IMG/VR virus record: IMGVR_UViG_3300042991_001118
Coordinates: 32,001-96,000 of that record
Direction: 5' to 3' (one strand)
Source: a virus
Length of the DNA: 64,000 nucleotides
This document shows, in pieces, positions 103 through 5,580 of the stretch. Below the pieces are notes generated by a model. The model ran no database searches, had not been told where the DNA came from, and saw only the letters and a program-made list of their open reading frames with translations. Made by a program: the position numbers and the translations under genes. Every line of letters starts with the position of its first letter. The stretch's first letter is position 1.

Positions 103-268
103 TTGAATATCTCCTTATGCAAAACCTCAAATTGACTCTGGAATAAACTCAAAGAACAAATTAAATATAAAACGAAAATGGAAATGTAGTCAAAACTGTA
201 GTCAACCCCAGAACCAATATCATGAGAAAATATAGAAATACCCAACTTGCTAGTTGGCAAAAATATTC

Positions 269-296
269 TTGACTATGCAAAATAACTTATTATACT
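269..296 (+). promoter_or_regulatory. sigma70-type promoter of the transposase
   Basis: TTGACT-N16-TATACT inside the left IR; AGGAG RBS before the ATG at 339. Confidence 0.55.
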
Positions 297-338
297 CCTA
301 ATAATAAATCTAATATCAATAAAAATTAGGAGTTATAC

Positions 339-1166
339 ATGAAAAAAGATCAAGAAACAACTATCATCACAATTTACATAATCATTGACGCTCTTTGTGA
401 AAATTTATTACGCCATCCAGCACAAAAACAGAAATTAACGGATGCTGAAATAATAACGATAGCAATATGTTCTGCCATTTTCTTCAACAGCAATCATGAC
501 AAAGCTCTTTCCTGGCTGCGCATAGCTGGCTATTTCCCTGAGATGCTTAGTTTATCCAGGTTCAATCGAAGGATACATCGTCTAAAAGAGTTTATCAAAT
601 TCTGTTTCGAGAGCGTCAGCGAGTTGTTTCTTACGAAAAAATTATACATCGCCGATTCTATGCCTTTGCCTGTATGCAAAAGAGTGCGGGCTTGTCGAAA
701 TAAAAAAGTCCGAGGCAGAGAATACTATGGCTGCTGTGTTGCAAAAAATGAAAAATTCTTTGGATTCCGGCTGCATCTCATTGTGGATACCCAAGGAATT
801 CCTGCATCTGTCGCCATTATGCCTGGAGCATACCACGATATCACTCCTGTGTATGAAGTTACGTCGCCGTTGCCGGAACAATCGACTGTCATGGGAGATA
901 AAGCATACAACTGTAAAAATGTCGAAGATGCTTTGAAAGAATTCGGCACCACACTGATGCCCAAACGTCGTAAAAATATGAAAATGCAGTGGTCTTTGTT
1001 CGAGCAATATTTTATCATAGGTCAACACAGAAGGCAAATAGAAACATCGTTTAGCATTCTCTCCGACACTATGGGACTCAATCATATCAAAACTACGACA
1101 CTAAAAGGCTTTATGATTAAAACCTACGCTGCCGTGCTCGCTATGATTTTCTATATCGTTTTCTAA
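339..1166 (+). CDS. IS982 family DDE transposase
   Basis: 275 aa; KLTDAEIITI and LSRFNRR N-terminal motifs; IADSMP, FFGFRLH, GDKAY and RRQIETSF (D-D-E triad). Confidence 0.92.
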   Translation: MKKDQETTIITIYIIIDALCENLLRHPAQKQKLTDAEIITIAICSAIFFNSNHDKALSWLRIAGYFPEMLSLSRFNRRIHRLKEFIKFCFESVSELFLTKKLYIADSMPLPVCKRVRACRNKKVRGREYYGCCVAKNEKFFGFRLHLIVDTQGIPASVAIMPGAYHDITPVYEVTSPLPEQSTVMGDKAYNCKNVEDALKEFGTTLMPKRRKNMKMQWSLFEQYFIIGQHRRQIETSFSILSDTMGLNHIKTTTLKGFMIKTYAAVLAMIFYIVF

Positions 1167-1173
1167 AATCATC

Positions 1174-2646
1174 TTACAAACAAACCATACCTGCATTTTG
1201 CAACACGAGGCTGCACTCTTTAGATGGGACATAATCTTTTTGCATCGCAAAACCGACCCGCATGCCCATTTCTCCGTATCCTTTGATTACACAATATGTT
1301 CCCTTATATCGAACCACATCTCCTTTTCTCAGTTCGTCGTATCCGCTTCGTATGACTTTCTTTCCAGGCAGCACACGCAAACGTGCCAGAATTTGTTTGC
1401 CTTTTTTAGCGACTAGCTCTGTCAGGCTGTCAGACTTTTGTCCCGTTCTTTTGTTGCGATTTTTAGCCACGATTTTTGTGCCATCTTTATAGTTTCTCTC
1501 CCTTGTGGCATGGATAAGCTGGCGATGGTGCCTTCGGAACTGTTTGTATTCATATACGATAAGGTCGCTAGATTTTATCGAGCCTATTTTATCTTCGTCA
1601 GAAAAGGAGACCAGATATGCGTCTATGCAATGGCTTTTGGGAAGTCCCAGATTTTGCCGTTTTTCTTTGGTCTCGTATCCATAAGTTAGACAAACAGTTG
1701 AAACAATTTGCATCAACCATTCATAAAATAAAGGCATGATTGTGTTTAGAATCGTCGTATGAACATACTTCTTACACATGCCTGCAAATACAGCCTTGAC
1801 CTGGGCATCTACTTTCTCATGGCGATGCACTTTCTCATGGCATTTTGCGCAAAGGGTGATCAGATTTTCCGGATTGTCCCCGCCTTTCTGGCTTGCCCAT
1901 ATTACATGGTGTACGTGCAAATTCCCTTTTGTGTTACCACACAACTGGCACGTATGCTTGTCTCGGCAAAGCACGTATTCCTGGCTGTTGGCGTACCCTT
2001 TTTTTCTGCCGTTTTGGTACTGCACGCCTTGAACGGAGGGATTGTCAAGTTTGTGGATGTCGAATTTGCCATATTCCAGATGCACATGCGCTATAGGCAA
2101 TATTTTAGCTGCTTTGTCACTGAATCTTTTGTGCGTTTCCAACAAATGGCTGGCCGTAGGCGTGAGCCAACCTCTGTTTCGGCGGCGATTATGAAAGCGG
2201 ATCGGCTTAGGTTTTATCCCTTTGCAAAGCAAATTTTCGGCGGTATTCGATATTTTGTATCTCTTTTCACCAAAGTATGTTTGCGCTTTTTTCGCCCTGC
2301 GTTTTCTAACCAAACGACGATGCCTCCTTCTGCTTTGCCTGTGCATCCTGCGTTCGGCCATATTTTCGGACACTTCCTTGCTTCTAGCTTCCACATGTGC
2401 CGCAAATACTACTTCTCCATTCTCTTTTCTCACGACTAGCGCGATATCTTTTCCGCCTGGGTCAATTCCCATAATCAAAGGTTGAGTGTAGGATGTAGTA
2501 TCATATAAAAGTTGTATCGTGAATGGTTTACGACGTATTACTTTTGCAAGGCCGGCTTTTAGCAACTTTTTCACTTTGCCAAATCTTTTCGTCGGCATGA
2601 GTGGCTGGCCATTTTCCGATACGACATAAACGTAATTATTTTCCAT
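1174..2646 (-). CDS. iscB: IscB RNA-guided endonuclease (OMEGA), about 490 aa; true start is the ATG at 2646
   Basis: PLMP motif (GQPLMPT), RuvC-I GIDPG, Arg-rich bridge helix, RuvC-II HLEYGKFD, HNH CQLC..HVHH..NLITLCAKCH, RuvC-III KSHCIDA; catalytic residues appear intact. Confidence 0.95.
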   Translation of the reverse strand: MENNYVYVVSENGQPLMPTKRFGKVKKLLKAGLAKVIRRKPFTIQLLYDTTSYTQPLIMGIDPGGKDIALVVRKENGEVVFAAHVEARSKEVSENMAERRMHRQSRRRHRRLVRKRRAKKAQTYFGEKRYKISNTAENLLCKGIKPKPIRFHNRRRNRGWLTPTASHLLETHKRFSDKAAKILPIAHVHLEYGKFDIHKLDNPSVQGVQYQNGRKKGYANSQEYVLCRDKHTCQLCGNTKGNLHVHHVIWASQKGGDNPENLITLCAKCHEKVHRHEKVDAQVKAVFAGMCKKYVHTTILNTIMPLFYEWLMQIVSTVCLTYGYETKEKRQNLGLPKSHCIDAYLVSFSDEDKIGSIKSSDLIVYEYKQFRRHHRQLIHATRERNYKDGTKIVAKNRNKRTGQKSDSLTELVAKKGKQILARLRVLPGKKVIRSGYDELRKGDVVRYKGTYCVIKGYGEMGMRVGFAMQKDYVPSKECSLVLQNAGMVCL

Positions 2647-2649
2647 ATT

Positions 2650-2835
2650 TTGCTCATTTATAAAAAATTCCGAAGAATAATTCCACACGAAGGTGGTCGG
2701 TCTCCCTGAACTGGGTGCAGGATTGGCATAGAGCCTGGGATTGGGAAGTTCATCCCAGGGTACTACCTGCATCCGTGTGTCACGTCCCTACTCAACTAGC
2801 AAGCAGGGTAACCCTGATAACTACAGCGTTCAATC
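2650..2835 (-). ncRNA. omegaRNA (HEARO-like) scaffold of IscB; 5' boundary uncertain (2809-2835)
   Basis: Minus strand has TAGTTGAGTAG..., CCCTGGGATG-AACTTCCC-AATCCCAGG stem, TGCAGG/CCTGCA pairing and CAGGGAGAC pseudoknot-like segment, directly upstream of the PLMP start. Confidence 0.8.
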
Positions 2836-2933: not shown

Positions 2934-3137
2934 TTATTCTTCTGCTGCTGTTCCATTCTTGTCCTCACTTATGTTTTTCCTTATCGGCCTACCAGTCCTG
3001 ACTACCTCATGAGGCATTTTATACCTGTCCTCTAAGGCCCTCCGAATTATCGTAACAACAGGGGACCCAGTCGCAAACATCTCCTCTTCGATTTTCTCGA
3101 AAATATTGTCCGGAATCCTTACAACCGTGTTTTTCAT
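2934..3137 (-). CDS. ribbon-helix-helix (Arc/CopG-like) repressor
   Basis: 67 aa; KNTVVRIPDNIFEKIEE...VTIIRRALE fits the RHH pattern; GGGG RBS. Confidence 0.65.
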   Translation of the reverse strand: MKNTVVRIPDNIFEKIEEEMFATGSPVVTIIRRALEDRYKMPHEVVRTGRPIRKNISEDKNGTAAEE

Positions 3138-3180
3138 CTTTTTTTATTCCCCTTCTTTTATTATTTTCTTAATATAAACA

Positions 3181-3270
3181 ATTTTAAATAATAAAACATA
3201 AAGATATTTATTTGTCAAGAAGAAAATAAAATATTTTATGCTTTATTATTTAAAATTTTTATGTTATAAT
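3181..3270. promoter_or_regulatory. divergent promoter/operator region with a long imperfect inverted repeat
   Basis: About 30-bp arms 3181-3210 / 3228-3256 flank a minus-strand TTGACA (3213-3218); plus-strand extended -10 TGTTATAAT (3262-3270). Confidence 0.55.
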
Positions 3271-3321
3271 ATTCTATGCAATCTTATATGGCTTTGTTTA
3301 ATTTTATGTTAGGAGATAATA

Positions 3322-4098
3322 ATGGATAATAATATCTTAATGAAGATAGAGGAAAAATTGCTTGGTGGAGAGTTGGTTCGGACCGCAAATGCAAGAGAAC
3401 TTCATGAGAAATTGCAGGTGTCTACGTATTTCACTACGTGGATACAAAGAAGATTGTGTGAGGCTCAAGCGATTGAAGGACAAGACTTTATAAGCCTTTC
3501 AAATTTGGAAGCCTCTGGGCAGACTAGTAAAATGATATATGTCTCTGCAAATATGTGCCAGCACATCGCGATGTTGGAGCGAACCGAAATTGGTAGGAAG
3601 GTGCGCCAGTACTTTATCGATGTCGAGAAAAAAGTAAAGGATATCGTATTGGAACAGACCCTCAAGGAAAAGGCCATGAGGGACTTTAAAGTGTACAAAG
3701 AATTAGGCGAGATTGTACAATTGCCTACGTCCACGATTATTTCGGAAGCATCAAAACTCGTGGACAGAACCTACGGCACAAACTTCGTCGAGTTTATTTC
3801 TAAGTCCCCACTCCTCGATAACGTGAAAGAATCAGACGAATACCTGGAACCCACAGAACTCGGAAAAATTCTGGGGATATCTGCAATCTCCTTAAATAAA
3901 AACCTGGAATCGCTCGGACTTCAAGATAAAACCGGAAATTCCTGGACTCCTACAGCAATTGGGAAAAAATTCTGCTTTGTACACCAGTGGTCCACTAGGG
4001 CAAAATCTGGTTACAACTTGAAATGGAATGTCAGGGAAATCTCTAATCTCCTTTTGAACAGAAATCCAACCCCACGTGTGGTTGGTGATGGCGGATAA
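3322..4098 (+). CDS. phage antirepressor (AntA/AntB N-terminus, KilAC-like C-terminus)
   Basis: [41 protein letters not shown]; C-terminal PTELGKILGISAISLNK..W.PT..G. Confidence 0.85.
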   Translation: MDNNILMKIEEKLLGGELVRTANARELHEKLQVSTYFTTWIQRRLCEAQAIEGQDFISLSNLEASGQTSKMIYVSANMCQHIAMLERTEIGRKVRQYFIDVEKKVKDIVLEQTLKEKAMRDFKVYKELGEIVQLPTSTIISEASKLVDRTYGTNFVEFISKSPLLDNVKESDEYLEPTELGKILGISAISLNKNLESLGLQDKTGNSWTPTAIGKKFCFVHQWSTRAKSGYNLKWNVREISNLLLNRNPTPRVVGDGG

Positions 4099-4389
4099 TC
4101 GATAAAAGACGAGGGGTTTGCAGTCTGGGATAATTGAATTCCAAAATTCAATTTCAAAAATCAGAAAAAAGTTCTGGGGTGTAGCGACCCCCTCCACATC
4201 TTTTCCATCCGCCGTAAACCCTTCGGACACCCCTCTAAGCCAACCCCTGCCTAAGCCCCTGAGTGCCGCAAAGAGGGGACAAAAAAGACCCAACAAGACC
4301 AAAAGGAGACAAGGGGACACCTTTCACCACACTCGTACACTTCAATAGAAGCCAGTGGCTGCATTCTGATGAGTCCAACCGTCTATTGA

Positions 4390-4790
4390 GTCCATCTAAT
4401 CCATCCACGTGGCTATATTACATCCCAATCGCCTCGACAATGAACACCCAACCCATCCATCCCATCCCTTTTATCCTATCTAACCCATCCCATCCATCCC
4501 TTTGACCCCCTTTAGCCCGACCGCCCTTTCCATTCCATCCATTTTGTCCTATCCAATCCATCCCATCCATCCCTTTCATCCATCCCTAGACTCGATTACA
4601 GCCATTTTTATCCATACCAAAGACCTTTTCCATCCCTTTTATCCATCCAGGTCTATCCCCGGGCTAAAAACGCCTCCTACGTGGAGAAAAAGACCAAAGA
4701 GATATTCCCATCCATCCATTCCATCCCACCCAGCCTTTTAGCCCGACCGCCTTTTCCCCTCCATCCCTTCCATCGATTCCATCCTTATCA
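4390..4790. repeat. C-rich low-complexity tract of CCATC(C) units
   Basis: Dozens of CATCC/CCATC copies, all in one orientation; TTTAGCCCGACCGCC duplicated at about 4511 and 4737. Confidence 0.8.
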
Positions 4791-4889
4791 ACAATGCAAT
4801 AGTTGTACACCACTTTCACAGGATAAAAAAGACAACAGGAGAGAACAACCCTAGAGCCTTAATAGGAATCATTGTCGCAACTAGCCCAC

Positions 4890-5170
4890 AACCCAGGACA
4901 GAACAGACAGAAAAGATTTTTTAGGATTGGAACATAGGGAAGGTAAAGGGTGCAGGGTGATTCCATAGGACAAACCCGACAAGATAGACAGAAAATCCAG
5001 GAGAAAATCGACAAGACAGACAGAACAGACAGGAAAAAACCGATAGACCGGACAGAAAAGCCAGGACAGGACAGACAGAAACGACTTTTCATCCAGGATT
5101 TCCAGGCATGACAAGGGAAAAAGACCGTTTTTTAGGGTATTTTCGAGAAAAAACAGACAAAAAAGACATT
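4890..5170. repeat. purine-rich tract of GACA(G) units
   Basis: Many GGACAG/AGACAG/GACAA copies, single orientation. Confidence 0.75.
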
Positions 5171-5580
5171 TTTCACAGGATTCATGAGAAAATTACTAGA
5201 CGGAAAAGATTCCAGCACAGCAACATGTGGAAATTTTAAAAAATCGTCGCGATAAGACGAGAAAGATGAATAGGTTATAGCCGTGTTAAAAAATATGCTT
5301 GGACGAAAAAAATAAAAACGACTCGACAGATAAAAAAGATAAGGCTTACAGAGGACTTTCGTGAAAGTGAAAATAGGAAAAAAACGAAAAATGGGTAGCT
5401 CTGTGAGGCTTATCCTACGGCCTTCTCCGCACCTATGCCAATCAAGAGGATTACCTGCCTTATCTGCATGGATGGAAGACTAAAAGTCTTAGTAACACAA
5501 GAGATAGGACAATATTGAGAAACCTGGCATGTATATCAGTATACCAGAATGAGATATTCCGGGGAATGTCCCACGTAAAA

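Follow-up and report, generated by a model that had tools for sequence, protein, structure and literature searches.

IscB is the presumed ancestor of Cas9. A typical insertion sequence of the IS982 family is about 1 kb in length and holds a single gene. The inverted repeats of this family start with AC, and its target-site duplications are short and variable in length. In the solved OgeuIscB complex, stem loop 1, also called the guide adaptor hairpin, comes immediately after the guide (PMC9640706). In IscB elements of the IS200/IS605 type, the transposon end bounds the omegaRNA and the guide lies outside, and both homing or retention and a co-evolved specificity of transposase and nuclease have been shown (bioRxiv 10.1101/2023.03.14.532601). 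ISC/IS605 elements are described as having no inverted repeats and making no duplications (PMC4810608). IscB is rarely linked to TnpA and is not linked to serine recombinases (bioRxiv 10.1101/2023.03.14.532601), and rare linkage to any transposase was reported by Altae-Tran et al. 2023 (PMC10691335) and by Meers et al. Links to DDE transposases have been reported for TnpB (PMC10691335; review PMC13565253), and according to a proposal in the TnpB survey of Altae-Tran et al. 2023, transposon ends are included in guide adapter hairpins (PMC10691335). No description of IscB together with IS982 was found in the papers searched, and the papers that join IS982 and "RNA-guided" were unrelated.

The window, that is, the whole 64,000-nt stretch of DNA analysed here, comes from a 116-kb viral contig of IMG/VR and contains one copy of the element described below. 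Window positions 240–2809 are interpreted as a 2570-bp IS982-type transposon carrying a DDE transposase gene together with an IscB-omegaRNA module. Its omegaRNA-side inverted repeat would perform two jobs, as the transposon end in DNA and as the start of the scaffold in RNA, and the guide would be supplied by the flanking DNA; this explanation as a whole is given a probability of about 0.75. The features are as follows.

228–239, minus strand: far flank, in which 239–234 read ATTTCT (the place of a target-site duplication) and 233–228 read ATATTT (an RTAW-type sequence)
240–256, plus strand: far terminal inverted repeat, ACCCAACTTGCTAGTTG, matching the omegaRNA-side repeat
269–296, plus strand: promoter-like site to the inside of the far inverted repeat, upstream of the transposase gene (TTGACT-16-TATACT, 10/12; a consensus match only)
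339–1166, plus strand: IS982-family DDE transposase gene (NCBIfam transpos_IS982 and Pfam PF13612)
1174–2646, minus strand: intact iscB gene encoding 490 aa (Pfam RRXRR and HNH; NCBIfam guided_IscB)
2647–2809, minus strand: non-coding stretch upstream of iscB, the omegaRNA region including the inverted repeat
2647–2785, minus strand: rest of the predicted omegaRNA scaffold (covariation, weak HEARO match)
2786–2808, minus strand: predicted P1 hairpin, analogue of the guide adaptor hairpin (RNAalifold, pair counts and pair probabilities)
2793–2809, minus strand: omegaRNA-side terminal inverted repeat of 17 nt, with position 1 at base 2809, the element boundary
2810–2825, minus strand: predicted flank-derived guide (about 16 nt), immediately 5' of the scaffold (from the boundary and the hairpin order of OgeuIscB)
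2811–2823, plus strand: partial repeat-like sequence ACCCTGATAACTA, head-to-head with the inverted repeat and one base (2810) apart from it

The repeats at 240–256 and 2793–2809 are identical at 15 of 17 positions, or at 16 of 18 when one flanking base is included, and the chance expectation for such a 16/18 match in the window is 0.22. The transposase scored 189.1 bits against NCBIfam NF033520 (transpos_IS982; cut-off 130), and IscB scored 264.5 bits against NF040563 (guided_IscB; cut-off 175). The IscB translation is full length, with PLMP, a split RuvC and HNH, and the motifs QPLMPT, GIDPG and HVHH are visible; the transposase gene is likewise intact. The stop codons of the two convergent genes are 7 bp apart, and the nuclease module (iscB and omegaRNA) occupies 1.65 kb between the transposase gene and one inverted repeat. 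The omegaRNA is compact, the boundary lying about 163 nt from the iscB start codon. Comparison with phage and plasmid collections gave no DNA similarity, and single-protein scans of viral contigs gave no matches. Many metagenome contigs of 2.3–3 kb seem to contain both the transposase and IscB.

The locus shares several properties with the canonical ISC/IS200-IS605 IscB elements (OgeuIscB, GstIscB; HEARO), including the PLMP, RuvC and HNH parts of the protein and a structured RNA upstream on the same strand. As in the canonical omegaRNA, a first hairpin comes directly after the guide, which is predicted here, and is accompanied by a central stem and a pseudoknot. Likewise, the transposon end adjoins the scaffold, here with a putative flank guide, and a motif next to the insertion site lies at the TAM position. 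However, subterminal hairpins, a Y1 TnpA and the absence of a duplication mark the canonical elements, whereas this family has 17-nt inverted repeats, duplications of 4–9 bp and an IS982-family DDE transposase. The first hairpin has 8 bp here and 14 bp in OgeuIscB, and the RNA falls below the Rfam HEARO threshold. The scanned ORFs beside iscB included no Y1 transposase, and the neighbour is the DDE transposase. With the DDE-associated TnpB elements (IS630-linked and other DDE branches, PMC10691335), the locus has in common an OMEGA nuclease on a symmetric inverted-repeat transposon and a gene near one end. It differs from them in carrying IscB, which is Cas9-like, with the omegaRNA 5' of the gene and an IS982-family transposase, whereas TnpB is Cas12-like and its omegaRNA lies 3' of the gene. 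A transposase above the NCBIfam cut-off and inverted repeats starting with AC agree with the IS982 family, and duplications, absent from the window copy, are short and variable in the relatives, but at 2570 bp the element is longer than the typical transposase-only member of about 1 kb, carries iscB and an omegaRNA in addition, and has one inverted repeat that is predicted to be RNA-coding as well. For IscB, no description of such a dual-role inverted repeat that pairs it with IS982 was found in the papers searched; the idea of a hairpin at the transposon end has already been proposed for TnpB.

The first-pass annotation had claimed that the inverted repeat continues straight into the omegaRNA scaffold, and the sequence bears this out: ACCCTGCTTGCTAGTTG (2809 to 2793 on the minus strand) directly abuts the scaffold start AGTAGGGACGTGAC. 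It left two possibilities for the guide, namely that the scaffold begins at the boundary of the insertion sequence and the flank gives the guide, or that the first stem is formed by a head-to-head junction of repeats and the guide lies beyond about 2835, and it suggested comparing where conservation stops among homologous loci, at 2810 or at about 2835. Relatives of the IscB protein were collected, and the DNA upstream of iscB was aligned. At seven loci with 57–92% identical IscB, the similarity starts exactly at ACCC, and the preceding DNA is unrelated. Further copies were sought with a pattern comprising the inner half of the inverted repeat and the scaffold start, with the reversed pattern as a control. 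In one Planctomycetota family, 28 copies were found in the genome that holds L164 and 30 in a second genome (0–1 with the reversed control); about 58 matches to one miniature copy were present in the second genome. Among 61 distinct junctions, many of which are recent copies in two genomes, with about a dozen independent lineages behind the covariation, the fraction of the commonest base is 0.33–0.48 at flank positions -16 to -1 and rises to 0.92–0.98 at positions +1 to +5, which lie outside the search pattern. Conservation ends at ACCC in these 61 junctions, and its stop is therefore placed at 2809/2810 rather than at 2835.

The inverted repeat is predicted to take part in an 8-bp hairpin, P1, in which repeat positions 2–9 pair with positions 17–24 across a 7-nt loop. 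The 5' arm (2808–2801) is formed by repeat positions 2–9 and the loop (2800–2794) by positions 10–16, while the 3' arm (2793–2786) comprises the last base of the repeat and the 7 nt just inside it. The predicted pair probabilities are 0.92–0.97, at -11.0 kcal/mol. In a covariation set of 16 sequences from about a dozen lineages, analysed by pair counts on alignments rather than with a covariance model, the main helix of P1 is 92.7% paired, with compensatory change in three of six pairs. Alignment columns 17 and 49, for example, hold AU nine times, CG four times and GC three times, with no unpaired case. Across the 61 junctions, position 7 (G29, C20, A12) mirrors position 19 (C29, G21, T11). 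The leading claim of the first-pass annotation, that the transposon inverted repeat doubles as the 5' stem of the omegaRNA, is supported in this form, with the outer half of the repeat as the 5' arm of a covarying hairpin, and this hairpin together with the boundary supports the first of its two possibilities. By analogy, P1 corresponds to the guide adaptor hairpin, formed in this case on an inverted repeat of the DDE type.

The rest of the scaffold contains a central stem (2774–2766/2721–2713), a pseudoknot hairpin (2759–2752/2741–2734), downstream hairpins and a pseudoknot between 2748–2743 and 2706–2702. In the 16 sequences, the whole structure has 29 pairs in five helices, with compensatory change in 17 pairs. 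Its cells are 90.5% paired, a level reached by none of 500 shuffles, compared with 79.8% after shuffling and 31–52% in slid controls. A GAACU/AGUUC pseudoknot was considered and rejected, as one-sided changes break its pairing in the L166 and G102 copies; a CUYCC/GGGAG pseudoknot, which hardly varies, was retained. The Rfam HEARO model (RF02033) gave 19.4 bits against a gathering score of 83, with a match confined to 2729–2762 (model positions 94–126), and had no match at E≤1 in a 10-kb scan. The first-pass annotation had noted the absence of the usual GTCAAC-CCCC 5' arm; since HEARO matches only the internal pseudoknot hairpin, the 5' part of this RNA differs from the HEARO consensus.

Conservation of the terminal sequence might alternatively reflect DNA. 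The terminal hairpin could be a feature of transposition control, such as transposase binding or read-through, with the functional omegaRNA starting after it. ACCC and the loop TTGCTAGT are conserved at both element ends, which points to a constraint at the DNA level, and these are probably what the transposase reads, judging from the sequences of the ends; moreover, covariation alone does not separate RNA from single-stranded DNA. However, the repeats of the far end lack the GGG complement, so the hairpin is not formed there and P1 belongs to the omegaRNA side. We know of no use of single-stranded hairpins in IS982-type DDE transposition, which also counts against this explanation. A scaffold without P1 would have nothing linking the guide and the nexus stem, and the position of P1 is that of the guide adaptor hairpin (PMC9640706). 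The DNA-level explanation is therefore considered distinctly unlikely.

The second possibility raised by the first-pass annotation involves the partial repeat at 2811–2823, which was described as pairing with the inverted repeat over about 13 bp with two mismatches. The description is fair: the complement of ACCCTGATAACTA matches the repeat in 11 of 13 pairs including one G-U (10 of 13 Watson-Crick), a GGGT-A-ACCC palindrome exists, and at this single site the leading run of six against the window's own repeat is rarer than chance (reached in 13 of 20,000 shuffles). The first stem might thus be the head-to-head junction of 2811–2823 with 2797–2809, which would put the guide beyond about 2835. 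Against this, the head-to-head match is private to the window copy and occurs at none of 29 other junctions, while conservation ends at ACCC in all 61. Its pairing is predicted with a probability of at most 0.002, at -7.0 kcal/mol, well below the values for the internal hairpin, and nothing resembling the element family was found beyond 2823. A guide beyond 2835 is accordingly regarded as extremely improbable.

The preferred explanation, with P1 as the first hairpin, leaves the partial repeat as a peculiarity of this copy. The leading run of ACCCTGATAACTA matches the ACCCTGAT variant of relatives in 8 of 8 positions, which is better than its match to the window's own repeat. Its origin as the remnant of a miniature element was considered and rejected, as the similarity ends at 2823. 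The window copy also has no target-site duplication: its far flank reads ATTTCT and then ATATTT, like those of the relatives, but the near flank (2810–2815) does not repeat ATTTCT and ends in AGGGTT. What now lies on the near side is thus not just the sequence into which the element originally inserted. Either a rearrangement of the near junction or an insertion next to a relative that has since been lost might account for this.

Inverted-repeat pairs enclose full elements at L162, L164, L166 and L170, and L163 is an element of repeat, omegaRNA, iscB and repeat that has no transposase and is flanked by a 6-bp target-site duplication. Miniature elements consisting of an omegaRNA between two repeats are 188–317 bp long, with no protein gene within 1.5 kb, and two Planctomycetota MAGs of one family contain dozens of them per genome. 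Clean target-site duplications of 4–9 bp were found for nine insertions (L163 and eight miniature copies). The repeats are working transposon ends. The first-pass annotation had held that the inverted-repeat match would be coincidental if homologous omegaRNAs with no IS982 nearby had the same repeat. Such copies do exist, but coincidence does not follow, because a second, inverted copy of the repeat is present in them and several have target-site duplications; the omegaRNAs without a nearby transposase are non-autonomous derivatives.

The transposase gene is convergent with iscB in the window, in L166 (5353–6168) and, in degraded form, in L164 (3024–3439), and it is co-directional with iscB in L162 (2388–3206) and L170 (1045–1866). 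The part comprising the repeat, the omegaRNA and iscB is unchanged whichever way the transposase gene points, which suggests that the transposase segment was inverted or reassorted between near-identical repeats. These relatives also bear on the possibility of accidental adjacency, in which an IS982 copy landed next to, or enclosed, an IscB element of the ordinary IS200/IS605 type and its inverted repeat plays no part in the RNA. The usual setting described for IscB is an element of the IS200/IS605 type, which lacks inverted repeats and duplications (PMC4810608), and the window taken by itself shows iscB and the transposase gene just side by side. However, every relative has the inverted repeat at the same base before the scaffold, whether its transposase is convergent, co-directional, degraded or absent, and copies of this transposase were found only beside iscB in five host genomes. 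In addition, the hairpin covaries across the border between repeat and scaffold, and the miniatures keep repeat and omegaRNA as a unit, with duplications. Accidental adjacency is thus very improbable.

Several further observations were made on the relatives. The genomes G003 and G102 (loci L267–L289, L301–L312 and L321–L340) hold miniatures of 190–320 bp and few or fragmentary iscB genes. In G003, many of the copies lie 65–90 nt from contig ends, which points to a longer multicopy element as the probable cause of the broken assembly. L280 (1494–1672) has two tandem members, of which the first is cut off about 45 nt in and followed about 83 nt later by a complete second start; the pair looks like a nested or abutting insertion. 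IscB of L166 has an insertion of about 115 residues (3860–4206) between residues ~125 and ~121 in the numbering of the window protein, and 613-aa forms with the same insertion were found in P0012, P0017 and P0021 as well as in L166. Three loci (L003, L168 and L169), whose IscB is about 50% identical to that of the window, form a sister clade with a different conserved 5' end (TTTTATTAAATA...) and an inverted look-alike of this end about 60 nt or less after the iscB stop. No transposase was seen near these three loci, and they may be on yet another type of inverted-repeat transposon. Over all 17 positions, the far repeat of the window (240–256) is the same as that of a miniature in a Brocadiia MAG (L301, 1717–1733), and the omegaRNAs align closely, which hints that the phage host, or the donor of the element, is related to the group of this MAG.

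Because the scaffold is predicted to start at the first base of the element, the guide would have to come from the flank. The RNA would thus begin with about 16 nt of outside DNA, here at about 2810–2825, and each transposition would install a new guide from the neighbouring DNA. The inverted repeat itself was also considered as the guide and rejected, as its 5' half is paired and positions 5–7 differ between the two ends. No promoter-like site was found on the minus strand at 2810–2933, so that expression would depend on read-through, presumably from the co-oriented upstream gene at 2934–3137. This gene, on the minus strand, has 67 codons and no family match. This gene and an antirepressor-like gene (AntA/KilAC, 3322–4098) diverge from an AT-rich region at 3140–3320 that is rich in inverted repeats and is likely the control region whose leftward transcript would read into the omegaRNA. 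Long tracts without coding sequence follow downstream of the antirepressor gene at 4360–5200, rich first in CATCC/TATCC and then in GACAG/GACAA repeats.

A candidate TAM emerges from the insertions with clear duplications. With the elements oriented so that the omegaRNA side is on the left, RTAW stands right after the far-side duplication in all nine insertions (chance about 1e-11 from base composition), and the sequence at this site is often ATATTT. RTAW occurs in 0/9 at offsets 1–9, and the mirrored motif before the near-side duplication in 0/9. In an empty site, RTAW would come directly after the match to the guide (upstream flank plus duplicated bases), where the TAM of an IscB lies, while in an occupied site this place would be taken by ACCC. 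IscB could then cut empty alleles and spare its own element, leading to homing or retention. The RTAW pattern fits a co-evolved specificity of transposase and nuclease, by analogy with IS200/IS605. Alternatively, RTAW might reflect nothing more than the target choice of the transposase.

Searches for the corresponding targets gave the following results. The window guide was found once only in the phage contig, where no target was identifiable, and the guide followed by RTAW had four exact matches in viral contigs, with unrelated surroundings and in about the number expected by chance from a rough estimate. An empty site was sought in related phages via the antirepressor gene, which has relatives only 25–40% identical, and none was found; nor was an orthologous empty site of a miniature element found in the host family.

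The structural reading might hold without homing. RTAW would then be a preference of the transposase, and IscB and the miniatures would serve trans-guided targeting, regulation or inter-element conflict. This alternative agrees with the lack of a recognisable target for the window guide, with the dozens of omegaRNA-only copies beside few iscB genes, and with the consideration that the break left by cut-and-paste DDE excision makes the need for restorative homing less obvious (PMC13565253). However, the motif is asymmetric and coincides exactly with the TAM position at the end opposite the omegaRNA, a pattern that the co-evolved specificity of IS200/IS605 gives. Target motifs of DDE transposases are usually symmetric, which also counts against the alternative. 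A structure of this kind without homing is considered rather unlikely.

The homing explanation can be extended to a broader proposal, in which an IS982-family transposon of the cut-and-paste type and IscB have co-evolved. The inverted repeat would act as the guide adaptor hairpin, insertion would make RTAW the TAM of the flank guide, empty alleles, including those of rival phages in co-infection, would be cut and converted, and omegaRNA-only miniatures would guide in trans. This proposal is tentative, and its chance is put at somewhat short of even.

On an autonomous IS982-family DDE transposon, the same 17 bases would be both a substrate of the transposase and part of the first hairpin of a guide RNA. 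On this reading, the rule of "scaffold inside, guide outside" can also be realised with a very different chemistry of transposition. The compact omegaRNA, with its short, exchangeable first hairpin, comes in a family that offers autonomous members, iscB elements without transposase, dozens of guide-RNA-only miniatures and a candidate TAM, and this family may provide a natural test of RNA-guided homing for duplication-making transposons. If the broader proposal is true, RNA-guided homing would reach beyond IS200/IS605 and IS607 to include a DDE transposon that makes target-site duplications and carries the presumed ancestor of Cas9.
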